Counted from the first letter of the stretch, positions 16,235-52,240 are shown. The stretch: DNA of 64,000 nt from Trichodelitschia bisporula (GCA_010356995.1 ML996687.1:1117803-1181802); one strand, 5' to 3'. Made by a program: numbers and translations. The notes: generated by a model not told the origin, from the sequence alone.

Positions 16235-17024
16235 GGTGAGGGAGGTGGTTTAGTCTAGTCTATTAAGTGCTGTGAGCTCGTTGGGAGTGAGGCGATGGTT
16301 GAAGGCGTAGGATCTGGATAGTCAGCCTTGTGCGCCCAGCAACCCGCACCACCACGTACCTTTAGCACAAGTCTCAAATCTTCTAGCAGTAAACTGGACT
16401 AGACTGAAGAACTCTGTCCTACGTAACACAACGCATCCTACCGCTGGGTCTTATACTCCCTCACTACCACAGCCACGCTCCCCCTCCGGCGTGAACCGCG
16501 ACATGCGCCCGGAACATGACTTTGCCGCCGAGACTGTGCCCCTGCACGTACCCGGACCGATGTTGGTAGCATCCCTCCCCGGGTGCTCTGGAATCCTTAG
16601 GTCGGCGAGGGCGGATATGGGATGCATTTAAGCGCGCGCGCTGGGGGGCCGGGGTCGCGTTTCAGAGACCAGCCGTGGTTGGTTGAGGGGTGCGGCGCGG
16701 GTTAGAGAATAGACGACGCGGTGGGGGAGATCAGTTGAACTCTGGTATTAGAGTCTGGGATATGCTGGTTGGAGAAGCAGCTTGACGTGAGACGGATATG
16801 GCTAGAAGGGGGGGATGGAGTTGAGGTGAGGTTGTTGAACGGGTGTTCACGTGATGTATTGCCCGATCGGGATATCGTGAGCTCTGACTTTGATCGACGA
16901 GGCCAGCGGACTTTAAGCTGATGCAAGAGGACTTCGGGAAAGTCGAGGAAGCGGTGCGTACATTCGGTCCATTTTTTGTTATCCAAATCTACAGCCCATT
17001 CCTCCCAAACTGTCGTAACCGACT

Positions 17025-18312
17025 TTACACACTCGCTTCCTCTGAGCCCTTTTTCACCTCGCTCCACGAGCCTGTCGTCCCAGAGAGGGCATTGACCTCC
17101 TCGACCATCTCACTAACCTTAGCATCGTGCTTGCTCGCCATGGGCTCAAGCCCCCAGCGGTCAAACATGACCTTATCCTCGTCCCACCCATTGCACTCCG
17201 TAGTCAACATCTTCTCGCCCGTGAACACGGCATTAGCGCCCGCCATGAAGCACAGCATCTGCTTCTCCTCGCTCATAATGTTGCGCCCCGCGGCCAGACG
17301 GATGATGGTGGAGGGGAGCACGAGGCGCGCCGTGGCAATGGTGCGCACAATGGCGTCGAAGGGTACGATTTCAGAGTCGCCCAGCGGGGTGCCCTTGATG
17401 GGGACGAGGGCGTTGACGGGGAAGGACTCCGGGTGCGACGGCATTGTCGCAACCGTATGCAACAAGCCCACCCGATCCGTCTCCTTCTCACCCAGCCCCA
17501 AAATCCCGCCCGAGCACACATTGATCCCCGCATCGCGCACATTCGCAATCGTCGCCAACCGCTCGTCGTAGCTCCGCGTCGTAATTACATTGGGATAGTG
17601 CTCGCGGCTCGTGTCGACGTTGTGGTTATACGCCGTAAGCCCCGCGTCCTTGAGCTCACGCGCCTGCGCCGCGTCGATCATGCCCAGCGTCACGCACGCC
17701 TCCATGCCCAGCGCCCGCACCCCGCTCACCATGTCCTTGATGTTCTTGAGGTTCGTCTTGCGGCCGCGCATGTCGCGCCACGCGGCGCCCATGCAGAACC
17801 GGCTGCTACCGTTGGACTTTGCGATGCGTGCGGCTTCGAGGACGGATTCGACGGTTACCATTTTTGTGGCTTTGAGGCCGGTGTTGTGTTTGCTGGATTG
17901 GGCGCAGTAGCTGCAGTCCTCGCTGCAGCCGCCGGTTTTGATGTTCATCAGTGTGCACATTTGGATGGCGCGCGGGGAGTGGAAGCGTCGGTGGACGGTG
18001 GCCTGCGACGCGGTCAGAGGCACGAGCGGAGATTCAGAGGCACGAGAGACAAACGGCCGCGTATTGCAGCTCTACCAAGGGCGTGTGGTACAGCTCTGCG
18101 ATCTCATCCTTGGACCAGTTCGTGCGCGGGCCGGCGGCGTCGATGGCGGCTTGCAGCGCGGAACGTCCCTTGGAAGCTGTAGCCGCGGGCGAGGGCACGG
18201 GGATGGGCGTGCTGCCGAGCGGGGCGTCGTGGACGGTGCTGAATGTGCGGAGGGGGGTGCGCAGCGCGGGGAGCCGCACGCTGGCGTGGAAGGTGGCGCG
18301 GAAGCAGCTCAT
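17025..18312 (-). CDS. BIO2: Biotin synthase (radical SAM), mitochondrial
   Basis: CSEDCSYC radical-SAM motif, FCMGAAWR, YNHNVDTS, PESFPVNAL, IIRLAAGR. Arg-rich presequence; intron at 18003-18054. Confidence 0.97.
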
Positions 18313-18732
18313 CGCGAGTGAGTTTCGGGGAGGTGAGGGAGTGGAGATAGTGTTGAGGGTAGGGAATGAAGTTGAGCAGAGTGTTGCGGAGAGGGGAGTC
18401 CGGTGGGTGTTGGGATGGTGGGGCAGCTGGGGGGTTCGTTCGGCGTCGGCTTCACGGCCCGAGGTTGGCCGAGTTGCTGCACTGGATAGGCGCGCGGGTC
18501 AGGTGATAGGGCGTGTCGGGGAAGACGCGTTCTGGACTGCAACTCCAGGTTCTGCATACAATTATCCGCTTCCGGAAGTGTGTTTGGTTAGTTTTTGGGC
18601 AGCGCACTCGGTTGATCTCATGTGCCGCTACGAACTCCTCAGCCTCGCCATCGTCTTCTTCCAGGACCGCCGCTCCCGCGCGTCGCCCCACTCCCACCGC
18701 ACCGCAGATATCCCCCCGCCGCGACCGCCGCA

Positions 18733-20844
18733 ATGCTCCACGAAATCCTCCTCTCGCTCGCGGGGCATCCCTCAGCGCTCTTCGATCCCGCACACCCGGG
18801 CCAGGTAGACGCGTCCTTCCCGCTGCTCTCGCCGCCCGAGCGCGCGCTCCTCGAAACGATCGCCCATCTCTCCACTCTGCACCGCACCACCCGCGCCGCC
18901 GCCACGAGCATCGCGTCCACGCATCCCTCGCCCATCGCCCGGGCCGTAGCCTCCGCGCTCATAACACCACACCTCGAAGCCTTCCAGCACAAGATCCTGT
19001 CCGTCGAGCGCTCCATCCTCGCGCACGACTCCAGCACCGTGGGCGCGTACAACATCGTCCCGCTCGCCTCGCTCGTCGCCGACTTCGACGACTGGACGCG
19101 CCGGCTAGAATGGTACTCCACACTCACAGCCTACATCCAACCTAAGAACAGCACCCCTTGCACCGGCGCCGCGCTCATCGACCACCTCCGCTCCGCCGCC
19201 CAAACCGGCTACCCGGACATCGAAACCGCGGCCCTATCCCTCGGCCGCGTCGCCGAAACAGCATGGCTGCGCCAACTCTCCGTCTGGGTGCTCTACGGGC
19301 GATTGCCCGTACATGCAGGCGGGGACTTCTTCATCCAACCGGCGCCAGAGGGGGAGGGGACTGAATTCGTCCTCGCGCCCCGGCTGCTCCCCGGTTTCGT
19401 GCCGCCACCCGTCGCTTCATCGATCTTGTTCATCGGCAAGTCGCTAACGCACATCCGCGCCCGCGGCCTGGAGGACGTACCCGGCGTTCGCAGCGCAGCT
19501 GGCCGGACCTCGGAGCTCGACCTCCTCCCAACGCACCTAGCACACCTCTCCGCCCTCGCATTGCCAATAAGCAGCGCTGCGCTCGGCAGCGTGATAAGCG
19601 CAATCCGGCTCTCCCTCTCGCGCACTGCGCTGCAGCGCCTCCTCCCCCTGCCCAAAATTACCTCCATCCTAACCGTGCTGCGGGATTTCTTCCTCCTCGG
19701 CCGGGGCGAATTTGCCGTCGCCCTCGTGGCAGCAGCAGACGAGCGCCTCGTCCTGCGCACGAAAAACATGCTCGCCGCGCCGCCGGACGCGCTTCGCGGA
19801 ATGCAGATAAAAAGCGCCGAGTTAACCGCCATCCTCCACAAAGCCCTCAGCACCCTCTCCTCTACAGTCCCGGAATCAGACGCCGATGATTCAACCCTGT
19901 ACCTAGCGCGGGAACTCCTGCACCTCGGCCCGCCACCCCGGCCCCATCCCACACCTAACCTCCCCACCCCCGCACCCACCAGCTTCGCCTCCTTCCTCCT
20001 CCCTACTCCTACAGGCCTAACCCTGCACACACCCTCCCCGTACGACCTCTTCCTCTCATCCCCGGAACTAGCCCTCTACTCAAGTCTCGCGTCATATCTC
20101 CTCTCCCTCCGCCGCGCACACTTACGCCTCACCTCCCTCTGGCGCGAATCGCCCCTCCGCCGCTCACATCCGTGCCCGCCCGGCCCACCGACCAGCTGCA
20201 CCCCCCACGGGGCAGCACTGCTCAAGACGCAGCGCGAGCGGGCTGCAAGGCGGAATGTAGCGCTCCGACCGGTATGGGCCGTGGCCGGCGCGGCGGTGTT
20301 CCTCCTTGCGGAGCTCGGGGCTTACTTCGAGGGTGATGTGGTGCGGGGCGCGTGGGAGGCACTGGGGACGTGGATCGGCGAGGGCGGGGACGGGGCGCCG
20401 CGGGATCCCGAGGCGCTGACGGCGGCGCATTTGGCGTATCTGCGCGTTGTGGTGCTGGGGTTGCTCCTGCCGCATGCCGGGTTTGTGCGAGCGTTGCATG
20501 ACTTGCTGCAAGCTGTGGATGCGTTGGCTGCGGGGGTGGGACGGCTGTGTGTGTTGCATGCAGCCATGGATTTGGAGAGTGATAGTGGGGTTGTGGATTC
20601 GTTTGGGCCGGGGGAGGCGGAGGTGGGGAGTGTAGGGAGGGAGGTGGAACGGGCGAGGAAGAGGGTTGATGCGGGGGTTAGGGGGGTTGTGGGTGTGCTT
20701 AGGGGGTTGGAGGGGGGAGGGGAGGAGTTGCTGCTGGGGGAGGCGGTGTGGCGGGTGCCTGGCGTGGAGAGGTTGCTTATGAAGTTGGAGTTTGGGGGGG
20801 TAGGGAGGGAGGATGGGGAAGAGGTGGAGTTGGTGGTTAGGTAG
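18733..20844 (+). CDS. GCP4: Gamma-tubulin complex component 4 (Spc97/Spc98 family)
   Basis: N-terminal MLHEILLSLAGHPS, WLRQLSVWVLYG, SILFIGKSL, LRDFFLLGRGEF, and C-terminal RLLMKL. Confidence 0.88.
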   Translation: MLHEILLSLAGHPSALFDPAHPGQVDASFPLLSPPERALLETIAHLSTLHRTTRAAATSIASTHPSPIARAVASALITPHLEAFQHKILSVERSILAHDSSTVGAYNIVPLASLVADFDDWTRRLEWYSTLTAYIQPKNSTPCTGAALIDHLRSAAQTGYPDIETAALSLGRVAETAWLRQLSVWVLYGRLPVHAGGDFFIQPAPEGEGTEFVLAPRLLPGFVPPPVASSILFIGKSLTHIRARGLEDVPGVRSAAGRTSELDLLPTHLAHLSALALPISSAALGSVISAIRLSLSRTALQRLLPLPKITSILTVLRDFFLLGRGEFAVALVAAADERLVLRTKNMLAAPPDALRGMQIKSAELTAILHKALSTLSSTVPESDADDSTLYLARELLHLGPPPRPHPTPNLPTPAPTSFASFLLPTPTGLTLHTPSPYDLFLSSPELALYSSLASYLLSLRRAHLRLTSLWRESPLRRSHPCPPGPPTSCTPHGAALLKTQRERAARRNVALRPVWAVAGAAVFLLAELGAYFEGDVVRGAWEALGTWIGEGGDGAPRDPEALTAAHLAYLRVVVLGLLLPHAGFVRALHDLLQAVDALAAGVGRLCVLHAAMDLESDSGVVDSFGPGEAEVGSVGREVERARKRVDAGVRGVVGVLRGLEGGGEELLLGEAVWRVPGVERLLMKLEFGGVGREDGEEVELVVR

Positions 20845-20946
20845 AGAGGTGGGCTTTGCTCTGGCGTTATGGGCTGGGTGGGATGGATGGATGGATAGAT
20901 GGCATAAAACGGGTCTAGGGACGTTTATTACTGCGGAAAGGCCTAC

Positions 20947-21193
20947 TACCACGAAGTGCTACACAAGAATGGTGCAAAGAAAAGACGATAAACACATGTA
21001 AAAGGCGTGGGGCTCACATGCCCCTCTCCAAAGGACGACTTCCAGGGCTTTTCCTCAACCCTTCCAGGGAGGGTTTTTGCCGTGTAGAACCAAAGAAATT
21101 GGTCAAACCCACTCCTAAAGTGGTGAGACCCAACCATACGGCTAGCTAAAACAACCCTGGGCGTAATCAAGCTATTATTATTACCACGAAGTG
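20947..21193 (+). mobile_element. Short retroposed fragment (5'-truncated non-LTR/SINE-like 3' end) with target-site duplication and (TAT)n tail
   Basis: TACCACGAAGTG occurs at 20947-20958 and 21182-21193, flanking ~220 bp that contain several stems and end in TATTATTATTA. Confidence 0.7.
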
Positions 21194-21523
21194 TTAATGG
21201 CTCCCAGACTGAGTGGAGGTGATGTTAAGCCTCGCTCTAGGTAGATCACGTGATGAATATACGTTGAGAGGTTGTTCAAGAGGTGAAGGTAGGAAAGGGC
21301 ATTAGGCATGCACCTTTTTGAATTCAAGCGTCAGAAGCGTTAACACTGGCAATGAGGTATTCGGTATCATACTCTCCGTAAGCGGAATTCTCGTTGACGA
21401 TTTTGGCGTCGCCGTAGAATCAACTGGATCTCGTCACGTGCTTGAACTCCAGTGGCAGCTGGATTTAAATGTTGTCCGTTTCCGCTACTTCACCTACCAA
21501 CCTTCAACATCATACATCAAACC

Positions 21524-22459
21524 ATGGCTTCTCCAGTTCAGACCTCTCCAAACCCTCACAGCTCTCCCAACCCTCAGAGCTCTCCCAACTCTCAGAGCTC
21601 TTCGAAACCCCAGAGCTCTCCAAACCTTCAGAGTTATTCGAATCGTCAGAACTCTCCAAACCTTTAAAAGCCTTCGCATCCTCAGAGTTCTCCAAACCTT
21701 CAGAGTTCTCCAAACCTTCGGATCTCTTTGAATCTTCAGAGCTCTCCGAACCCTCCAAACCCACCATATGTTGGCTCTTTCCAGTCCTATATTCAGTCCC
21801 AAGCCACGCAGCAGGCGCGAGCTTCTTCAGCTCAAAACTCACAGGGCCGTCGGCAACCAGCATCTTTTGACTCATTCGAGGACTTTCTTCATTTCCACGT
21901 TCAGCAGCATCAATCCGAGCAGCAGTCGCAAGTCGCGCAGCAGTCGCAAGTCGCGCAGCAGTCTCAAGCAGCGCAGCCGGCGCGAGTTTCTTCAGCTCAA
22001 AGCTCACAGGGCCCTCGGCAACTAGCATCTTTTGACTCTCTCGAGGCCTATCTTCATTTCCACATTCAGCAGCATCAATCTGCGCAGCAGTCGCAAGTCA
22101 CGCAGCAGCCTCAAACAGCGCAACAGCCTCAAACAGCGCAGCAGCCTCAAGCCGCGCAGCTGCCCCAAGCCGCGCAGCAGCCTCAAGCTCCGCAGCGGTG
22201 TGAAGCTACGCTGCAGTCAGAAGCCGCGGAGCAGTCAGAAGCCACACAGAAGCCTCACGCAGTACGACATAAAGAGCTTACACGTGACAAACGCATCCAG
22301 ATCCTGACTTTGAGAAACATGGCCGGCATGACGTACGCAGATATTGCAAGGCACGTAGGCTGCTCAATGAGACAAGTTCAACGGACAGTCGTCATAGGAC
22401 ATCCCTCGCCTCAGAGAAAGGGACGCTGTGGTCGTAAAAAGCGCGCATCTTCGACGTGA
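21524..22459 (+). pseudogene. Q/S/P-rich repeat protein fused to a Tc1/mariner-type N-terminal HTH, with one in-frame TAA at 21665-21667
   Basis: ATG 21524 is in frame with ORF 21728-22459. QSSPNL hexapeptide repeats and a 165-bp internal duplication precede the C-terminal KELTRDKRIQILTLRNMAGMTYADIARHVGCSMRQVQR...GR. Confidence 0.65.
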
Positions 22460-22670
22460 TCGAGACCTGCGGGACTCACGAGAGAATAGGCCGGATTACC
22501 GAGTTCTTGAGCTTGGTATGGCTTTCGGCCATTTCGGTTTTGGGTGACACAGCATTCAACGTGTGTACACGGGTCTGAGTAGCTGAAAGTCTAGCTAATG
22601 TCACATCCAGATGCTTTTCGCCTGCGTGGCTTTCGACGATAGCTCGAGGCAAGCCACCGCTGATGACCCG
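22460..22670 (+). mobile_element. Decayed Tc1-like transposase remnant containing a probable spliceosomal intron (22561-22610)
   Basis: Translates with stops and frameshifts to SRENR..VLELGMAFGHFGFG*HSIQ|HAFRLRGFRR/IARGKPPL. No DDE domain or TIRs seen. Confidence 0.6.
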
Positions 22671-23319
22671 GAGTTACCGGACTCAAGCTCCTCAGCGCGG
22701 TCAGAATGCAGCCGACTGCTTTTGATCCTTCTGCCTGGTCTCTATGTCTCGTCGGTCCAAAGAATCTGGTCCAATTGATCTGATGTTCAGGATATCAGAT
22801 CCGTGGGATCAGATCCTTTGAACAGACGAAACATAGAGACCCGGGCAGAAGAATCGAAAGCAGTGAATCGCAATTTAGCCGCGCAAAGGGCTTGAGTTGG
22901 GTAATGTCCAGCGATCCCCTCCACAAGCTGAGCACCAGTTATCATCAAAGTCGCAACCACGCAGTCAAGCGACAAACTAGCTTCAATATCTTTTTCTGAA
23001 GATGGAGCTACTGCTCGGTCAGCATCAAGATTCACGTTATCGCCACATTGGATGGGCCTTAGAGGGTATGAGTGCCACCAGTACTCTATCTTCAGCTTCA
23101 CAAGGGGATATGGAATCACCAGACTCTTCGTCACTGTGCTCTCGTTTTCACACGTACACAATGCATACAAAAGCCATTGAGCACTGCCTTTACCATAGCA
23201 TGACCAGTCTTCCCTCGACTACAACAGTATCTACAGCCTCAATCCACGAACGCAAAATGCGAGATAAACCCACAGCTTCAGCATCCAAACACTGATCACC
23301 TTCCCAACCAATATACAAC

Positions 23320-23547
23320 ATGCATCCTCCGAGCACCACCTTCATCTACCAGTGCCGGGACCATGAGCTCAGCAACTGCTGGGGCTGGGTCTCGGAAAAG
23401 GAAGGCTTGTGCTTCAAGTGCCTTGCCTTGAAGGCCATAATCGATGGATCCCAAGAGGGATCGGGCACTAAAGGAGAGTTTGAGAAACAACAGTCTGCGA
23501 CCCGGGGCGCTACACGGGACTGCGTAGTTCAGGAGCCTAAGCCGTGA
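23320..23547 (+). CDS. Small Cys-rich protein, C-x7-C-x10-C-x2-C (paralog B)
   Basis: YQCRDHELSNCWGWVSEKEGLCFKCL; aacATG context; shares the motif with ORF 23886. Confidence 0.6.
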   Translation: MHPPSTTFIYQCRDHELSNCWGWVSEKEGLCFKCLALKAIIDGSQEGSGTKGEFEKQQSATRGATRDCVVQEPKP

Positions 23548-23885
23548 AGAGAAAACGGGAACTCAAAGATGCATCGCTCTTGAGTGGGAGTGACAAGAAG
23601 GGCCGATATGACTCGGTAGATAAATGAAACCTCTTGATGAGACAATTTCGATAAGTGTGGTCCCGATATTCTCGTCCCTATAGCTTCCTTCGTTAGCTTC
23701 CTTGGTGAATCCTCCGATCACAGTTTACAGCTGATGTGTGAAGTGACCAGCAAGTGAATGAACCCTGCAGAGTATATTAACCCCCACGAACCCAGCCTTC
23801 TCTGCATCATCTCTCAGCCTTACAAACCCCTGTCGATTCCTCGGACGTCTTCAATAAACCTCAGCGCTATTCCTATTTTGCAAAA

Positions 23886-24251
23886 ATGCGCCGCATCAAC
23901 TCCAACACCGAATACCACGTCTGGCAACAGTGCCCTAACTTCTGGACCGAGAAATGTCACGGCTGGGTGTCTCAGGAACACGCGCTTTGCAATCAATGCC
24001 TTGAAGCTCGGGCTGCCGTGCAGAACGACCTTCTGAAGCTCTTCGACCATGAAAGCTGGCGCCGTCCCGAGGCTGGTAAGTCGAAAGCTGCTGAACGAGA
24101 TGAGACTGAGAACAGGGAAGCTAAGGAAGCGGCGGACGGAGAGAAGGCTTTGAATGAGCTTCTGGATATATTCGAGCGTGAAGGCCGGAGTGCCGATGAG
24201 GGTGGTGATTCAAAAGCTCCGGACTGGCATGATCCTAAGAGCGACAAATGA
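23886..24251 (+). CDS. Small Cys-rich protein, C-x7-C-x10-C-x2-C, with charged tail (paralog A)
   Basis: WQQCPNFWTEKCHGWVSQEHALCNQCL; aaaATG context; TATA-like tatattaa near 23773. Confidence 0.7.
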   Translation: MRRINSNTEYHVWQQCPNFWTEKCHGWVSQEHALCNQCLEARAAVQNDLLKLFDHESWRRPEAGKSKAAERDETENREAKEAADGEKALNELLDIFEREGRSADEGGDSKAPDWHDPKSDK

Positions 24252-25214
24252 AGGAAGGCTTGAATTAAGAGAGTGGGATAAGGATGGAAATTCTAGAGTG
24301 TAACTGTACAATATCGGTGTGAATACAAATCTAGAAGCAGATGAAGTTGAAATGGAAAGGCATAGACAGAATAGAGACACTCCACTCCCAAAGATAAGAG
24401 CCCACGCCCATGATGACGGCGTCTGAGCCTGCAACCTCGCCGACCTCCTCACAGTTGGCTTCTCACTCGGAGCCTTCACCTGTGTCTTGTCACTCGGAGC
24501 CTTCGCCCGTGGCTTCTCAATCCGACCCCTCGCCCCTGCCTTGTCACTCCGAGCCTGCGTCCCTGCCTTGCCGCTCCGAGCCTTCGCCTGTGGCTCCTTG
24601 CTCCGAGCCTTCTTCCCCCATGGCTCCTCAATCTCATCCTTCGCTGACGTGGACTTATCGTTCTCCACCCCCTCACCCTCTCCCTTACGCTTCTTACGCT
24701 CTTCCTCCCTTTGCTTAAGATACGCCGCCATCTCCTTGCCAGTCCAGTACCCCTCCCTTGGCGGCAACACATCATCCGCCTCACTCTCCACCAGCGTCGA
24801 CTCATCCATCTCCACCCCCTCCTCCAATTCCTCCTTGCCCTTCGCAAGCATCACCTCCTGTTTCCGGTCGATATACGCCGCGATTTCATGATACCTCTTC
24901 ATCTTATCCCTCTGCTCCACCTCCCTCGCCTCCCGCTCCCCATTCGCCATATGCAGCCTCTCAAACTCATCCCACGGTCCAGGCTCATCCTCATCATGAT
25001 CCCTCCTCGTCGAAATAACGCGTATCCCCCGATGGCTCAGGTCGCCAGCCTCGCGGTACTGGCGCGCCCATCGATGACCCGTTGCTTTGGGAATTTCGCA
25101 CTCGGTGGCAGCGGCGACGATGGACATGCCTTCGTCGAGGCAGTCCATGAAGTCGACGCGCTGGGTTGCGCTGTAGCAGCCCTTGGGCATTGGGTAGTGG
25201 ATCATATTGTCCAT
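24210..25214 (-). CDS. Orphan protein with an N-terminal transposase-like HTH, charged middle and 9-aa (27-bp) repeats
   Basis: YSATQRVDFMDCLDEGMSIVAAATECEIPKATGHRWARQY. Repeats KARSKEPQA/KARSGKAGT/QARSDKAGA/KAPSDKTQV/KAPSEKPTV. aaaATG context. Confidence 0.65.
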   Translation of the reverse strand: MDNMIHYPMPKGCYSATQRVDFMDCLDEGMSIVAAATECEIPKATGHRWARQYREAGDLSHRGIRVISTRRDHDEDEPGPWDEFERLHMANGEREAREVEQRDKMKRYHEIAAYIDRKQEVMLAKGKEELEEGVEMDESTLVESEADDVLPPREGYWTGKEMAAYLKQREEERKKRKGEGEGVENDKSTSAKDEIEEPWGKKARSKEPQAKARSGKAGTQARSDKAGARGRIEKPRAKAPSDKTQVKAPSEKPTVRRSARLQAQTPSSWAWALIFGSGVSLFCLCLSISTSSASRFVFTPILYSYTLEFPSLSHSLNSSLPSFVALRIMPVRSF

Positions 25215-25563
25215 TTTGACTGCAAAAGAGTTGGAGGAGTGTTAACAGGTTATTTGTGATTTGTGATTTGCGATTTGTGGGTTGAAGTTGGATGGGAAGG
25301 GCGCAACGTCATGTTAGTAAATCCTTTCACCTTCCCTTATACTCGCCATCGCGTGTATCTCAGACGCGAATCAACGCGTCACATGTCCGTACAAAAGAAA
25401 AGAGGTAAACATTGCTCATGCTTTTTCTGACGTCAATTGGAGGCGATCACCACTTCATGAAGCCAGAAGACTCCAAACCAAAACTGCAATTTAGGTTGGC
25501 CCTCCTAGGATACGAATTCCCCCGCCCGTCCAGCAATTTCTCACCTCACCACCACCCCGCATA

Positions 25564-28500
25564 TCAAAGTGCCCGCTGACCCCACTCCCCCTCCGCCCCA
25601 TAAAAGCTCGTCTCCCCAATTTCACTCCTCCTCATCCCCTCCACATACTCCTCCCTCCCACCAGGAACATAGCTCTTCATGCCACCATCCTCGCTCATAT
25701 CTCCCGCAAAGCTCTCAGCATACAGCCAGTCCCAGTCGCAAATCTCCCCATCCCGCGATACGCTCAGCTCCTTGGGCAGCCCATGTCTCCGCCCATTATT
25801 CACTTGCCATACCTTCGCCTTGCCATCCCGCCCAAACCCCCAGATCGCCAGGCCTGCTGTCTGGCTTACCGCCAGGTCGACTACCCCGTCTTGGTCGCCC
25901 ACGATCGATCCCTCCAGGTATATTGGCCACCACTTACCCTGCGGCGCCGGCCCACCACCCAGACCTACTGAAGGCGGACACCGCATCTCACGCGGCCACC
26001 ACTCGAGCCACTCATGATTAGAAGCCCGCCGATGTGCTGCACCAGGTTCCTCAGCTGCAGCCACTTCGCGCGTCCCTGGTAAGTTGTGCCTCGACGTGCG
26101 CTGGAGCTCGTGCAAGGATGCAAGATACGCATCTGCGGGGATGGAGTACAAAACAATCAGATCGCCGTAGACTGCAACGATCTTTGGGCCCTGGGCGAGA
26201 TCCGTGCCCACGGCGTAGATACGCGGGAACACGTTCTGCTGCGGGGGGAGCATGACGAATTTGCGCAAGAGCCTCCGCCGGTCCTCAGCGCGCGGCGAGT
26301 CGCCTCCCAAACAGAGATACCCGCTCGGCGGGTCGACGTACAGGATGTGGTATCCATCTGACAGCGGGACAGCGCGGTAATGATCCGCCGTGTTGAAGTG
26401 ATCGTAGTTGCGGCTGATAAGTTCGAGGGTGTCGACGTACGGATGGGGGGTGCTGCGGGCGGAGTAGAGGCGGTTCGAGAGATCGGAGCGCTGCGAGTGG
26501 TGCGCGGCGGAGCTGATGACGCGTAGTTTCTTGGGCGAGTCGATATTAGCCCGCGGCGGGAGGAAGTACAGGAAGTCGCTTGGCCCTGTTAGTGGAAACC
26601 ACCGGTTCATGTGCTGCCGTGACTGTGCGTCGATCCAGTGCAGCTCAACGCCGGCGAAGCACCCGTAGGCCACGCACTGCCGCTGCGGGCAGATGGCGAC
26701 GCTGCGCGGCGGGTCGTCGTCCGAGCACAGGTGCCGGTATATACTGCGTGGACCGTCTTCAATGGGAATGCCGCGCGAGTTTTCATCGAAGAAGCGGTGC
26801 GGCTGCGACGAGCGGACGCGCCGGACGCCACGAAATGGGGCCTTGTTGACTCGGAATTTGCCCAGTGCTGTCAGAGCGTTGCTGTCTATGGAGTGCGAGT
26901 CGGCGTCGTCGCGGTTCTCTTGCAAGGAGGAGCTAGCTGCAGACATCGCGCTGACTTCTTCCGTGGCCACGCTGCTGTGGGACCGGGGTGTCTTGACTTT
27001 GGGAGGCGAGACTATGGCGCGCTCTTCGCCGATTGTTAGGTCGCAGACTAAACCCATTCGACCATCAAGGAGAGCAGCGACGGCATACCGTCGGCAGCTA
27101 ACGTCCATGCTCATGGCCAGGACGCGGCGTGGACACACTACGCTCGTCAGGGGAAACAAATCGTTCCCCGTCAGCTCGTAGACGTATATCATACCACCTT
27201 CGGCGACCATGACGAAATCTCCACAGCTGCTGGCAGTGAGGATCAAGCCGCCCTCCTCCTTCGCCTCAGGGCCGCCATACCCGCTCGCCAGCTCGCTGAA
27301 ATCGACCCGCAGCGTTTGAGCCATAGAAGGGACGTTGAAGCAATCCTCAATACCATTTCCCGTCCATGACGAGCTCAGCGTACATTCCAGACTGAGGCGG
27401 CAGCTGAAGAACCAAGCGTTGGTTTCCATCAAAGCGCGCTCGGCTTTCCGGACTGCGCGCTGGGAATCACCGTTTCGGTCCAACATCCGCAAGGCCAGGT
27501 CATAGACGGCGCCACTGTACCATCCGCCGCGGGTAAGCATCTTGATCAGGAGCTTGTTATCGAGGCTGGCGCGGAACCAAAAGGTGCATGTGCGGCGTGC
27601 GGCATTAAAGTATTTTGGGGCTAGGTAGTCGTAGACCAAGTGTAGAATCTCGGTGGGCATACGCATGCTCAGTGGATATATCGGTGAGGGGAAGTCAGTT
27701 GTGTTGACATCAAATAGCTGGCAGACCTCGCAGAGTGCCCTGTACGTCCGGGGATCGAGGTAGGATGCAATTCTCCCCATCACCGGCTCGGGCAGCCTCT
27801 TGAGATATGATTCCATAGGGGGGAAGTATCCGGAGTGCATCCGACTGCCACCCCATTTGAGAGGATGGGGCGCCACGACATCGGAGCTGCTGAAATGCAA
27901 TTGACGCTGTCCAATCCAATTATCCGACTGCGCGCGCGAAGGAAGACTTCGTGGGGTGGAGACCTGTCGTGAAATGTTTTCCATCGACGCCGAAATATTT
28001 GTGGGAGTAACTGCTTCCGACGACGCATTAGCAAGGCTGCTGACCTGGCTCACACAACTGTGCATGCTCAGGGATGTTTGAGAGGCAAAGACGGATGGCA
28101 GTGTAGAGGGGGTAGCATCCTCGAACCCCGGGCTGCTGAAGAGGAACACCCCCCGAGCGACGACATCCATGCTGTATGACGAGCTCTGCCTAATAGGCGC
28201 CATACGGCCGCGGGTAACAAAGCTGGCCGTCGGGCTGCTGGAATGGATGATGACAAAGCTGTGATGTAGACTGGACGTACTCCGCTGTTGGGATCTTCCC
28301 GGCCCGACATCCGAGAGCCGTGTCTGCCTGCTCGGAGAGCGGACATGCAGCGAGTTTCGGACTGAAGAAAAGACCCTGTGGAGTCGAGCGGAATGGTAAC
28401 GGGGTAGGTAATATGATGACCGCGTCTCATCTCGGCGAAGATAACTGCGGATGCGCTCTGACCGGCGGCGGCGAAGATCTGTCGGACTGCTTTGTTCTGC

Positions 28501-28641
28501 AGATGCACCGTAGCCAGAGTCGGAAGAGTGTTGTGAATAGCTGAGCTCGTGAGGCTGCATGGCATTTTGAGCGCCCAGGTCAACGTCTCCGGGAGAGTCA
28601 CCAGGCATTAAGGCTGGAGTTGACTGGAGCGTGTGACTCAT
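25564..28641 (-). CDS. F-box domain protein with a C-terminal beta-propeller-like region
   Basis: Two F-box-like motifs (LKRLPEPVMGRIASYLD; MRMPTEILHLVYDYL) and conserved-looking blocks CPRRVLAMSMD and DDPPRSVAICPQRQCVAYGC. Start codon uncertain. Confidence 0.85.
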   Translation of the reverse strand: MSHTLQSTPALMPGDSPGDVDLGAQNAMQPHELSYSQHSSDSGYGASAEQSSPTDLRRRRSERIRSYLRRDETRSSYYLPRYHSARLHRVFSSVRNSLHVRSPSRQTRLSDVGPGRSQQRSTSSLHHSFVIIHSSSPTASFVTRGRMAPIRQSSSYSMDVVARGVFLFSSPGFEDATPSTLPSVFASQTSLSMHSCVSQVSSLANASSEAVTPTNISASMENISRQVSTPRSLPSRAQSDNWIGQRQLHFSSSDVVAPHPLKWGGSRMHSGYFPPMESYLKRLPEPVMGRIASYLDPRTYRALCEVCQLFDVNTTDFPSPIYPLSMRMPTEILHLVYDYLAPKYFNAARRTCTFWFRASLDNKLLIKMLTRGGWYSGAVYDLALRMLDRNGDSQRAVRKAERALMETNAWFFSCRLSLECTLSSSWTGNGIEDCFNVPSMAQTLRVDFSELASGYGGPEAKEEGGLILTASSCGDFVMVAEGGMIYVYELTGNDLFPLTSVVCPRRVLAMSMDVSCRRYAVAALLDGRMGLVCDLTIGEERAIVSPPKVKTPRSHSSVATEEVSAMSAASSSLQENRDDADSHSIDSNALTALGKFRVNKAPFRGVRRVRSSQPHRFFDENSRGIPIEDGPRSIYRHLCSDDDPPRSVAICPQRQCVAYGCFAGVELHWIDAQSRQHMNRWFPLTGPSDFLYFLPPRANIDSPKKLRVISSAAHHSQRSDLSNRLYSARSTPHPYVDTLELISRNYDHFNTADHYRAVPLSDGYHILYVDPPSGYLCLGGDSPRAEDRRRLLRKFVMLPPQQNVFPRIYAVGTDLAQGPKIVAVYGDLIVLYSIPADAYLASLHELQRTSRHNLPGTREVAAAEEPGAAHRRASNHEWLEWWPREMRCPPSVGLGGGPAPQGKWWPIYLEGSIVGDQDGVVDLAVSQTAGLAIWGFGRDGKAKVWQVNNGRRHGLPKELSVSRDGEICDWDWLYAESFAGDMSEDGGMKSYVPGGREEYVEGMRRSEIGETSFYGAEGEWGQRAL

Positions 28642-29073
28642 GTCGGAACGGTTGTTCAAGAGGGAGCTAGAACTTGTAGAGCTGCGTTCAGTGCTGTCCT
28701 GTCCATCTGTCGAAACCGCTGAAGCCTTGTTGGCAGAGGGTACGCCGAGCGGATGAGTGCTGGCCGGAGCGACCTCCCGCGATAGGAGGATTGAGGAAGA
28801 CGTGTTTACGATTGAGCCAGAAGGCTAGGGAAAAGTGATGAAGGGGCTGTGAGCTAGTTGTGGATGGCAGTAAGGGGTAATGGATGCATAGAGATGATTT
28901 GTGCGGTCGTTAGGAAGACATGAAGGCAAGGAGGCAATGGGAAAACAGGGCGACAGTACGGAGGAGCTCTGGGTCGGGCTTACAACAGCAAGTGGCAGTA
29001 GCGAACCAACGTGCGGTGGAGTAACATGGGGCCAAAACGCACTTGCCTTCAATTATTGATAACCGCTGCCTCA

Positions 29074-31763
29074 CTAAACCTGGGATTCTCCATCACTCAA
29101 CTCGCTGGGGTATCTGTTTCCATCTCTCGCCGTCTTATCTGCAAGCCACACGTTCTCAAGACTAATCATGTAAGTAGATACATATATGACAAGGGAGAAA
29201 CTTACGGGGCGACCAAGCTGGGATTAACAAAATAGAGACCGGAGTCGCGCACCTCATCTCCACTGCCGGAGCTCCTGTTACTCCGCGTCTCTGCAGCAAG
29301 TCTGATCGACTGGCCTTGATCATCCGCATGCTCCGCCTTGCGGATGCTTCTCAGAGCGATGAAAGTCATCAAGGGCTTGTAGCTGCTGCTGTACATGTAT
29401 CCGTACCACACAGTGACTACAATCAGTGGTATGATACCCAATGATCGCTTGACGGCGGATCGAAGAGCCAACTGGCCGGCCATAGAAATCTGAAAGATAA
29501 CCAAGCCGATGATGATACGATCGCAGACCATAATCCAGCTTTTACCGGTGGAGTGATGACTGTGATCCATGGCGTAGAGAAGCTGGTACTTGTAGACAAA
29601 ATATCCAATAATGAAGTAGGCAAGACCGGGAAGCAGGACTTGCCAGGAGGATCGGAGGACGCTGTACACGATGCAGATAAGAAAGATGAGGATATTCTGG
29701 GGCAAGGCGAAACCATAGCTGAACGCGGGTGGCTGCACAACGTCGGCATAATCGCGCGGTGTCTTGGCCCCGAACAGCGAGAACGGGTATAGGAAGACGC
29801 TTCCAAATTCCAGGAGGCGGAAAGGGAACAGGCCCAGTCCCTGAAGGATGATGTAGTTGACGTAGAAATTCCTCAGATCCTGGATGGACAAGGCGAGCTT
29901 ATTAGCCGTCTCTCTGGGAGATTCATTGCCAAAGTCGCTTGGTGCCAGGGCCACTGTCCCCAAAGCGGTGAACACGAGGAAAAAGTTGAAGAACACGAAG
30001 AAGAAGTTTTTCGAAATCACAGAGAGTTCGACATCGCCTTGCGAGATCATCCCTTGCTGGTTGGCAAGCCCTATCGCGCTCAGTATCCACTCGTTCGCAA
30101 AGCTGCGCACTTACAGTCATAAAAGTACGGCACTAAGACGTTCAGCAAAGACGCGACAAGGGTCGGCAGCTGCGTCTGGACTAGGGACTTGATAATGGGG
30201 TGCAGGTCCAACACATGCGCCAGACTTGGCCAGAACGTGTGGATACGGTCAAGGTCGATCAGCCCGGCAATAGGGACAAGCACCACCGACCAGAAGACGG
30301 TCAAGAGGCAGATGAGTGCTGTGATGGCCCATTTTCTAAGCATGCGCTGTGAGCGAGGTAGATAGGTGTTGGGCCACACCACATCTACTGGAGCCGGGCT
30401 AGTGCTCGCCAGTAGCTGCAGGGGCTGCGAATCCAACACTGCCTGGACCGCCATTTGCTGACAGACTCAGCTGAGCTCATCAACCTTGGGAGCCGAACTT
30501 ACACAACTGGCAACACTGTCCATCGTAACAAAGGCAAGTTCAGACGGCTTGAATTCCTTCTGCCGCAGCGCCTTGATCTTTTCGTCCATCCGGCGCAGCT
30601 TCTCCTCGTAATAGTCGATGGCGTCCACATTCTTGTACCGGAGCTTCCAAGGACCATACCATATGCGAGTAGTAGGCCGGGGCTGAGAATACGGGACAAC
30701 ATGGCTCCCGTTTCCACCAGAAAGAAGATGACTCTGCTCGTCGTCCCCGCTATGCAGCGTGGGGCTCGGCGGGGCTGGCTGCACTATTGGGAGGGTCTCG
30801 CGACTTCGCTCAATCCGACGAGGGCCTAAGAACACAGTCCATGCCTCCTCGAGTTTCCGCAAGAAGCTCATTCGCAAAGCCATAGCATCATCCAGCTCTT
30901 TCCAATTCCGACAAATAGTGACACTTTCCACCTTGCCAATTTCGAGATCCTCGACAAACTTTTTGATCTTGTCCTCGGACCGGAGCTCGTGTGGAATCCC
31001 AGACAGGCGAATGGTCTTATCCGTCACTGTACACTGGCTTCCCAGAAACTCCTGCCGAATGTCGATGATCCTCCTTGACTCAGTCGTCGTCATGTACAGT
31101 GCGAGACCGGTAAAGAAGTAGGCGAAGGCAAGATACATCCAGAGATAGTCGGCCTCATAGCTGGGGGTCGGAAACGGGTCCTCGATGTCCAAGAACGTAG
31201 GCCGCTTCGAAGGATCAATTTGTGAAAGAAAAAGAGTGTCTCCTTTAGTCTTGTTTTGATGCTTGGGTGCCTTCTCCGGAAAGCTGTCATGGACGGGTTT
31301 TATCACAATAAGCGCAAAGAAGAGCGTCACAGCAAGGAACTTGATGGCCATTTTGAAGAATGCCAGAAACTGAACGAGTCAGCATAATCCTCTAGAGTTA
31401 TCGCAGATCCCCCATGTACCACAAAGGCATCTAAGCCGGCCGAAGCGAGCACTTGCTCCTCCGTAATGTGCCATAACGCTGGTATCCATCCTAGGAGTGA
31501 GTTCGGGAGGTCTGGGAGGTTGGCTGCGCCGCTGTTCTGTCGCTTCCTCGCTGCGTAAAGGCTAGGCCATCTTGTCCGAAGAATCTGTCGATATGGTAAG
31601 CAGCTTGGTCTCGCGTGCAGAAAGGAGGTCATACACAGAACGCGACAAACGCGCCCAGACCAAGTGCTCCAGAGATGGCGATCTGGACGATAGTGTCCTT
31701 CGGGTCGCCGACTATTCGCTTCCGATAGCCGTCGTCCTGGAGTGTCCGGAACTCGAAAGCCAT
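29074..31763 (-). CDS. CSC1/OSCA/TMEM63 family (DUF221, RSN1-like) mechanosensitive Ca2+-permeable channel, multi-exon
   Basis: Motifs SAGLDAFV, TIRLSGIP, VDAIDYY, AFVTMDS, AP.P.DVVWPN, KNFFFVFFN, AKTPRD, YKYQLLY. Several short introns. Confidence 0.93.
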
Positions 31764-33610: not shown

Positions 33611-34759
33611 CTCCAAAAACACTTTCATCCGAATTTTCATGGGAAGGTTGATACTTAACTACATCCCGAGGTTCTCGGGTTAACTGAAAGCAAAAGTCAA
33701 GGGTACATCCCATCAAATGCATGCGTACGGCCTATGCACTTCACCGGCCCTCTTGGTTGCCGTAAGTCTGTGACGAATTCATCAATAAATATGAGCAGAA
33801 GATAAACCTGACGAAACTCACAGCTTTGTTCCATATTCTTTGAATGGGTCCCGGCTGTCAAGAATCGGTCAGACTTCGTCAGTGCCAGAGTATATGAACC
33901 TACGTATGGTCTCTGAGAAGAAATATTGTCCTTATAGTGCTTGCTGCCGACACCTATGCAGTTGGATTAGCATCCTTCTCTGGTGGTCTTCGGAGCACTA
34001 TACCGCGTGATTCTGTTTCGCCTTGCGGATTGAGTGAAGCCGACTGCAGGCTCTCTGGTCCTCCCGTTTCATCGGCTTGGTAAGTGTCAGTTCTAATGAA
34101 GCTTGTTGGCTGCTGCAAGTCTCCCTACCGTCAAAATCTCTACCTCGTGCGCTCGTGTCCGTCCATAGACCGAACTCCTCTTGGTAGAGCCAGTCGTCTA
34201 CATCCGTAGATACTGGGTTTCTCTTGTGTCCAACCAGGGCGAGCATGCCAGCTCCGAGTCCAAATCCGGCAAGTGCTAAGTTTCTGTTCATTTTTGGAAA
34301 ATTCGATCTTCTATGTTTGGGATCTCAGTTCAGACAAGTTGGGAGTTAAATAGTCTCTCTCAAAGGGCGATGGCATGACTTCCGGCATCATCAGGAGTTG
34401 CCTCATTGGGACCCTGATGAGGTGCTATCATCAGTCTGGAACAAACTTTGGGACCGTGACGACACTTATGATTCCCATGAACATGAACAGATACTGCATC
34501 ATGCGTCACCAGGCGGATGCTCAACCCAAGGCTCAACGTACGGTGCGGTAGGGCTGGATATCACAACGCCACACACCATGTGGCGCAGTTGTTTCCACAA
34601 CCACCGGCGCCAAGATCTTCCGTTCCGACTATTTACAAACAAGGCAGCCCTGGAGGGGGTGGGCGACAACGCAAGCTGACCCAAACGCGTATTGCTGTCC
34701 GGAAAGCACTTGAGGTCTGCATCAGCGTTAAACTGCACACGGCACACGAACCTGCCAGA

Positions 34760-52108: not shown

Positions 52109-52240
52109 GGCATATCCTCTGGCATATCCTCTGGCATATCCTCTGGCATATCCTCTGGCATATCCTCTGGCATATCCTCTGGCATATCCTCTGGCATATC
52201 CTCTGGCATATCCTATGGCATATCCTCTGGCATATCCTCT
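52109..52240. repeat. 12-bp minisatellite (GGCATATCCTCT) x11
   Basis: Read directly; one unit carries a C>A variant (cctat). Confidence 0.97.

Follow-up and report, generated by a model that had tools for sequence, protein, structure and literature searches.

Between a gene for a gamma-tubulin complex component and an F-box gene, the genome of the filamentous ascomycete Trichodelitschia bisporula carries an interval (positions 20947 to 25214 of the 64,000-nucleotide stretch analysed here, termed the window) in which two genes with transposase-type helix-turn-helix (HTH) domains stand around two small genes with a four-cysteine motif. The question that this locus raises is whether these genes form one system. 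A sequence-only reading of the window had proposed a lineage-specific module of domesticated transposase DNA-binding domains with small zinc-binding partners, and had named as an alternative a spot where mobile-derived genes accumulate. We analysed the interval against its own genome (25.8 Mb in 44 contigs; the window is G000:C1:1117803-1181802) and conclude that it is probably a tolerant intergenic site where unrelated pieces came together at various times without forming a joint unit. The alternative of an accumulation spot thus fits the evidence, and the domesticated module is not borne out: one of its HTH genes is broken, the two HTHs are unrelated and the combination does not recur.

Transcription was judged from the contig sets of two runs (X1 and X2) of one sample, placed on positions 16500-30500 as contigs, not reads. 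No run's record labels the material as RNA, and its nature was judged from splicing: since X1 and X2 contigs alike lack the canonical introns of the flanking genes, the contigs show RNA. Stretches left uncovered in these sets are no evidence either way. The main features of the interval are as follows.

21524 to 22459, plus strand: broken repeat/HTH chimera, with an RNA contig of X1, an HTH_23 match and repeat arrays
22460 to 22673, plus strand: frameshifted remains behind the HTH, with a spliced intron, seen in the spliced translation
22674 to 22904, no strand assigned: imperfect inverted duplication of 231 bp, arms 76% alike, fold z = -16
23320 to 23547, plus strand: Cys gene 1, 75 amino acids, C12-x7-C20-x10-C31-x2-C34, RNA contigs of both runs without a joint
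23886 to 24251, plus strand: Cys gene 2, 121 amino acids, C16-x7-C24-x10-C35-x2-C38 and a charged tail, X1 contig
24210 to 25214, minus strand: P0001, an intact HTH gene of 334 amino acids, HTH_23 at 6e-5, RNA contigs of both runs

The plus-strand gene had been described as a fusion of repeats and a Tc1-type HTH. Its repeats and its HTH are genuine, but they do not share one open frame. It is built as follows (nt, nucleotides).

21538-21755, plus strand: 18-nt array coding for Ser, Pro and Asn
21794-22144, plus strand: 165-nt tandem duplication
22067-22249, plus strand: Gln-rich 18-nt array
about 22280-22390, plus strand: HTH (HTH_23 E 1.6e-6), followed by a basic stretch and TGA 22457-22459

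The frame from ATG 21524, which has A at -3 and G at +4, hits a TAA (21665-21667) at codon 48, ahead of the HTH, and the next in-frame ATG past this codon already falls within the HTH. An X1 contig covering 21512-22781 shows 0 other letters, and its sole joint is the intron at 22561-22610, behind the TAA; the contig having neither other letters nor gaps nor a joint at the TAA, the stop is retained in the RNA, with the proviso that contigs lose rare variants and that a minor isoform may exist. The plus-strand chimera is therefore a transcribed pseudogene, whose predicted products do not exceed a peptide of 47 residues or, from an inner ATG, a piece of 46. Between the copies of the 165-nt duplication there are 7 synonymous and 15 non-synonymous differences, and the non-synonymous to synonymous rate ratio (dN/dS) of 0.61 is compatible with neutrality (Fisher p = 0.29, 55 codons). 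In the gene frame, the ratio of the proportions of non-synonymous and synonymous differences (pN/pS) is 0.57 and 0.62 for the two 18-nt arrays; as another frame of the Gln array reaches 0.46, a former coding role of these arrays is suggested rather than demonstrated. The possibility that the true gene is instead a stop-free frame at 21469-21870, over the first repeat array, was rejected: this frame ends ahead of the HTH, has a pN/pS of 0.87 versus 0.57 for the frame from ATG 21524 and is missing from the protein collection.

The basic stretch behind the plus-strand HTH reads RKGRCGRKK, which we take to be a GRPR-like linker. This HTH is related to that of a Tc1-like relic on contig C7 (0/2000 shuffles as good), an intergenic and frameshifted copy at G000:C7:1021000-1021350 whose downstream frames also look Tc1-like. 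Among longer proteins, a word-based search that is weak for short proteins gave 10 candidates for the plus-strand HTH, 0 of which scored, and a plasmid tblastn returned three weak records, one of them an IS21 transposase at E 0.05. Sequence searches of PDB with both HTHs and one relic piece reached at best E 0.12 (a sigma factor) and otherwise found nothing.

Behind the HTH lie the frameshifted Tc1-type remains and the inverted duplication, both of which the sequence-only reading had overlooked, together with the intron. The latter is of the GT-AG type, and its 50 bases (22561-22610) are skipped in one X1 contig. The spliced translation of 22460-22673, with its shifting frames, presumably corresponds to the latter half of the DNA-binding domain of a fungal Tc1 element; HTH_Tnp_Tc3_2 was detected in these pieces neither by profile nor by pairwise comparison, and the likeness is by eye only. 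Both arms of the 231-bp duplication carry the first-aspartate motif of Tc1 transposases, as IL*TDET on the plus strand (22813) and ILWTDET on the minus strand (22765), and the catalytic domain of Sleeping Beauty reads VLWSDET at the corresponding place. Across the 64-kb window the pattern [IV]L[W*][ST]DE[TS] is found just twice, each time within the hairpin that follows the HTH, with about 3e-5 occurrences expected in the island. The DD(34)E triad is incomplete, being reduced to the first-aspartate motif, and terminal inverted repeats (TIRs) were not found in 20900-25700, where the sole significant inverted repeat is the internal hairpin. Judging from these sequence features, the plus-strand copy is very likely a Tc1 relic. 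The genome also holds an intact Tc1-like transposase open reading frame (ORF) of 381 amino acids at G000:C4:1481857-1483002, its only DDE_3 match. A close Tc1 reference was found in none of the phages and in 0/4 viral contig stretches, and motif scans gave 21 prokaryotic matches and 1 viral match, none seen as a transposase.

In Drosophila, Tc1/mariner DNA-binding modules have been domesticated (CG4570, cag, toy), and in the available part of that account synteny, phylogeny and expression separate such genes from decaying copies (PMC13548663). Judged in this way, the plus-strand gene is a decaying copy: like the pseudogenes described there, it is single-copy and sporadic, lacks TIRs, has a broken frame and gave no orthologue. 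It differs from those described in that part of the source by its repeat-expanded upstream codons, by being still spliced and by its palindromic first catalytic motif.

The module would make of the four genes a lineage-specific regulatory unit in which two domesticated HTH proteins act with two zinc-binding partners. Against it stands first the broken plus-strand gene. Furthermore, the two HTHs are unrelated, 1592/2000 shuffles scoring as well as the genuine pair. The proposed co-occurrence of HTH and Cys genes elsewhere was found at neither the one other Cys locus (0/1) nor the other HTH/Tc1 loci (0/6): no HTH lies in the 16 kb examined at the third Cys paralogue, on contig C9 (best E 1.1), and neither pattern nor profile detected a Cys-motif gene within 5 kb on each side (10 kb per locus) of four HTH_23 matches, the C4 transposase and a hairpin piece on contig C22. 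One of these six loci, an HTH-only gene on contig C15, stands alone. Finally, the parts of the interval differ widely in age: synonymous sites are saturated in the Cys pair, whereas a long interspersed element (LINE) copy is still 98.7% alike to the nearest other copy. What speaks for the module is the non-random closeness of the HTHs, the presence of X1 contigs over all four genes and the constraint on the Cys pair; taken together, we consider it very improbable. The sequence-only reading had also stated that absent expression, absent co-occurrence and neutral evolution would indicate independent decayed insertions. Co-occurrence elsewhere was indeed not found and the 165-nt duplicate does not differ from neutrality, but RNA contigs are present and the Cys pair is constrained.

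Several observations weigh against an accumulation of unrelated pieces. HTH_23 has six matches in the genome, three of them above the cut-off (HTH_28 finds the same three), and two of these three lie in the island at a distance of 2.8 kb. If matches were placed uniformly, two this close would have P ~0.001-0.003, so that a hot spot must be assumed; this is the strongest point in favour of the module. The island is overlaid by RNA contigs, those of X1 extending over all four genes, although both runs represent one sample at contig level. Over a core of 31 codons the two Cys genes show pS 0.84 and pN 0.44 (p = 0.002), in an alignment that was picked by protein likeness and hence favours a low pN. 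Constraint, RNA cover and HTH_23 closeness together speak against a complete dismissal of the module, and searches within the own genome give lower bounds. The Tc1 side of the argument has its own weaknesses: compared with the C4 transposase ORF, the four relic pieces were equalled by 607, 1748, 58 and 722 of 2000 shuffles, only the third approaching significance, and the joined relic by a non-significant 370/2000, Pfam and NCBIfam do not recognise the pieces as transposase, and the assignment draws on the HTH, one motif and a presumed likeness.

The fold-back formed by the inverted duplication raises a further explanation, namely that it is a present or past hairpin silencer of its own Tc1 family. 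A precedent exists in maize Mu killer, a partial inverted duplication of a transposase gene that is read through from a flanking gene, as far as the available part of PMC3440606 describes it. The fold-back resembles Mu killer as an inverted duplication of transposase sequence within transcribed DNA; it carries the duplicated transposase-type motif, folds with the z-score given above, and RNA contigs approach its centre from both sides, one ending at 22781 and another starting at 22785. It differs from the silencer of that account in its short, diverged arms, 76% alike, and in that no target family was found. The arms contain 8 G-U and 9 A-C oppositions, that is, no bias to preserve RNA pairing, and the fold-back decays neutrally. 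No target element was detected, and the only other DNA match of the fold-back in the genome is an 85-bp piece (G000:C22:108374-108458). We regard a silencing role as very unlikely. The C22 piece belongs to a 103-bp palindrome (G000:C22:108363-108465) with the same centre as the island hairpin, and because the two have arm-specific letters in common, the copying postdates the divergence of the arms. An Rfam MIR6426 match at the fold-back was rejected (49.7 bits versus a cut-off of 96); it mirrors the hairpin shape only.

The minus-strand gene, P0001, fared better than its counterpart. It had been described as an HTH-plus-repeat gene pointing inward, and its HTH, intact frame and repeats are all confirmed.

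About 25169-25044, minus strand: N-terminal HTH of P0001 (HTH_23)
24459-24612, minus strand: basic 27-nt repeats of P0001

The encoded protein consists of the HTH, a long acidic helix, the basic repeats, an RRSARL motif (residues 256-261) and a 70-residue tail. NCBI and UniRef list it as a one-member cluster; it is single-copy and lies without TIRs in the island, and its X2 contig stops at 24434. Residues 26-61 match an IS630 transposase model weakly, far below the cut-off (E 5.3e-4), and the HTH shows no relationship to four further Tc1-type HTHs in this genome. Among 1.84 billion protein representatives no orthologue was found: besides itself P0001 retrieved 14 weak matches at 25-39% over the HTH stretch, three of which belong to named clusters (insect, bacterial and mucoralean proteins). 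Codons 1-264 have a GC content at third positions (GC3) of 0.73 and a codon adaptation index (CAI) of 0.75, as compared to 0.78 and 0.77 for the left flank gene, whereas the last 70 codons have a GC3 of 0.39; from its composition the tail looks like a former 3' untranslated region (UTR) read after stop loss. The structure model comprises three short helices, a 54-residue helix (predicted local distance difference test, pLDDT, 92 in parts) and a disordered basic part. For residues 1-264 as a whole pLDDT is 59, and the fold search returned only weak HTH matches (best E 0.52). Another annotated gene of the genome has a comparable make-up: G000:C15:797456-798139 encodes 227 amino acids with a Tc1-type HTH, GRPRK and a Gln-rich tail but without a catalytic domain, and is also a one-member cluster.

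These properties suggest that P0001 could be a young recruit of the host. Its protein is probably nuclear and DNA-associated, which is no proof that the host needs it. Like the domesticated genes described in the available part of PMC13548663, it retains only an HTH, is single-copy, lacks TIRs and is transcribed; it differs from them by its single HTH, its weak family assignment and the lack of a detected orthologue. A more specific proposal singles out P0001 as a transposase DNA-binding module that was domesticated recently and serves as a chromatin protein, with its neighbours as bystanders: the HTH would read DNA, the helix would dimerise, the repeats would wrap DNA, and RRSARL would dock on the nucleosomal acidic patch as in HMGN and Dsup. 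In the part of PMC12487698 that was available, RRSARLSA is the acidic-patch motif of HMGN, and Dsup is the only non-vertebrate case found there. P0001 shares with these proteins RRSARL in a basic, predicted-disordered region. It differs in that the motif continues with QA, not SA, that a transposase-type HTH stands ahead of it and that the motif is common in this genome; its binding is putative. The proposal draws on the 334 open codons, the single annotated copy, contigs in both runs, the absence of TIRs from the island, a GC3 and CAI of codons 1-264 near those of the left flank gene, the modelled helices, the HMGN and Dsup precedent and the rarity of RRS[AS]RL in shuffles of residues 1-264 (10/200000). 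Against it, no orthologue is known from the search and the 14 weak matches are confined to the HTH stretch; the five 27-nt units show a pN/pS of 3.4 (few sites) and the last 70 codons resemble a 3' UTR; the CAI barely separates P0001 from the broken plus-strand gene (0.68-0.70). The RRSARL motif was noticed after the fact and lacks the following SA; its degenerate pattern has 466 matches in the genome against 407 in a reversed control, is therefore common and provides a weak lead only. We judge this proposal unlikely. Its wider form, a young fungal chromatin protein with captured HTH, dimerising helix, H1-like repeats and an RRSARL acidic-patch anchor that would bind nucleosomes in a sequence-guided way and possibly works with the zinc mini-proteins, appears highly unlikely.

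The two four-cysteine genes are paralogous, as had been claimed: both ORFs have C-x7-C-x10-C-x2-C with G-W-V-S and a terminal C-L, so that their common motif is C-x7-C-x-G-W-V-S-x4-C-x2-C-L. A second copy of C-x7-C-x10-C-x2-C in the island has a chance expectation of about 1.5e-10. The longest DNA match between the two regions is 23 bp; this, together with the excess of pS over pN reported above, indicates an old duplication retained as protein, and from sequence comparison the pair is best described as old duplicates kept under protein-level constraint. The exact sequence of Cys gene 1 is missing from the protein collection. Cys gene 2 shares its X1 contig with the convergent HTH gene, a cover that does not by itself amount to a separate transcript, and X2 cover is nearly nil there. 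Just upstream of Cys gene 1, and in the same RNA contig, is a 97-codon Ser/Thr-rich ORF (23002-23295, plus strand), which has no entry in the protein collection and no Pfam family at cut-off.

A genome-wide pattern scan for the motif gave 23 matches versus 2 in the control: the two island genes, seven that were translated (one, on C9, was kept) and 14 that were discarded by eye as simple repeats. The third paralogue lies from G000:C9:223895 onward in a long gene-poor stretch, is found from Cys gene 2 by tblastn at E 0.002 (against a 16-kb stretch) and has an apparent intron after the last Cys-Leu. A weak Cys-profile match at window position 34552 (E 0.015) was rejected, as the motif is absent. 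Because the four cysteines, in two pairs, are invariant in 3/3 paralogues, zinc binding is predicted, and each protein likely holds one zinc ion. The motif may resemble an A20-type or treble-clef finger, a likeness that Pfam and fold searches did not support: Pfam gave 0 families, a PDB sequence search reached at best E 8.2, and the model of Cys gene 1 (pLDDT 49) had no fold match. Small proteins with this cysteine spacing are common among the hypothetical proteins of filamentous ascomycetes, and the island genes share with such uncatalogued proteins the short ORF, the N-terminal motif and the lack of a Pfam family. They differ in that the searches made found no alignment-level relative outside their own genome. 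Word-based searches, weak for short proteins, gave 3 candidates for Cys gene 2 and 3 for the three-member alignment, 0 of which scored. A metagenome scan for the family confirmed 0 of 139 stretches, and among the matches listed for the Cys pattern (at least 116), 0/116 were family members by eye after translation. Atlas matches were all below 0.9; a 66-residue Ascomycota cluster (82 members) was among the nearest in both queries (0.78 and 0.75), and these are leads only.

At the left end of the interval, the retroposed fragment noted by the sequence-only reading is genuine.

20947 to 20960, plus strand: left copy of the target-site duplication, one mismatch to 21184-21195
20961 to 21183, plus strand: 5'-truncated LINE copy, the 3'-terminal 223 bp, with a (TAT)n tail, 33 other genomic matches
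21184 to 21195, plus strand: right copy of the target-site duplication, paired with the left one

The duplication, with its one mismatch, measures 12-15 bp, according to the point chosen as the end of the tail. A DNA search of the genome with 20900-25400 gave 36 matches in total, namely the locus itself, 33 to 20961-21183 (85-99%), the hairpin against itself and the 85-bp piece on C22. Among 29 other LINE copies that were fetched, 26 reach further 5' and 3 are shorter, and a copy on contig C3 carries an ORF2 with Exo_endo_phos_2 (1e-18) and RVT_1 (6e-30), so that the parent has an AP-type endonuclease and a reverse transcriptase (RT). The window copy retains 223 non-coding bases only. It is an ordinary recent 5'-truncated insertion, in line with fungal LINEs of this endonuclease-RT type in its 3' simple-repeat tail, variable 5' truncation, target-site duplication and parental enzymes, with no notable difference. 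We provisionally assume a Tad1-like clade. An origin of the LINE ends from a tRNA-derived short interspersed element, or targeting to tRNA genes, was ruled out, tRNA being absent from 28/28 scanned loci around such ends.

Elsewhere in the genome, 25 of 34 LINE 3' ends have another within 10 kb, forming one cluster on each of 11 contigs. The two clusters that were examined (G000:C3:978000-987000 and G000:C8:918000-928000; nine other contigs hold the remainder) each span about 9-10 kb, lack long host ORFs and have a GC content mostly of 0.41-0.49 as against 0.53-0.66 alongside; the clusters are candidate small regional centromeres. Near position 516000 of G000:C3, a long LINE copy adjoins sequence whose translation we take to be a copia-type RT/RNase H-like protein, the elements being nested.

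The surroundings of the interval agree with the earlier description.

18733 to 20844, plus strand: left flank, gamma-tubulin complex component gene (Pfam GCP_N_terminal 5.4e-31, GCP_C_terminal 8.9e-17; RNA contigs)
25564 to 28824, minus strand: right flank, F-box gene, given as a stop-to-stop open frame (Pfam F-box-like 1.7e-9; RNA contigs)

Pfam supports a gamma-tubulin complex component on the left, for which GCP4 is the label of the sequence-only reading, and an F-box gene on the right. The statement that the island holds no housekeeping gene also stands, as 0/9 scanned island frames reached the cut-off with a housekeeping family. Per kb, the GC content of the island is 0.50-0.55, lower than the 0.64-0.66 of the left flank. 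Further along the window, 52109-52240 consists of eleven near-perfect 12-nt units (98% matches). No title on this locus or on this cysteine motif was found in the part of the literature that was covered.

The gathering of unrelated pieces at a tolerant intergenic site could have proceeded in steps whose order is inferred. First, a small four-cysteine gene belonging to a fungal family would have been duplicated long ago, its products each binding one zinc ion and serving as small intracellular adaptors independent of the HTH genes. Two different Tc1/IS630-type transposons may then each have left an N-terminal HTH. For the plus-strand copy, reading would have begun at an ATG upstream of it and passed through repeats that were expanding; behind the first HTH its frame would have been lost, and the beginning of its catalytic domain would have folded back into a palindrome before a nonsense codon arose. 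The minus-strand copy would have kept nothing but the HTH, to which a helical region and a basic one were added. Last, the LINE end would have arrived behind the gamma-tubulin complex gene.

The most likely reading matters little beyond offering a tidy case of a compact fungal genome that collects transposon pieces and orphan genes, with one dead and one intact chimera of a transposase HTH at the same site. The four-cysteine genes represent a small uncatalogued family, possibly missed by gene callers. Three separate HTH-only genes with low-complexity tails hint that new nuclear proteins of fungi repeatedly arise from Tc1-type HTHs. Should P0001 bind nucleosomes through RRSARL, the mode of HMGN and Dsup would extend to fungi and would there be tied to transposon capture.

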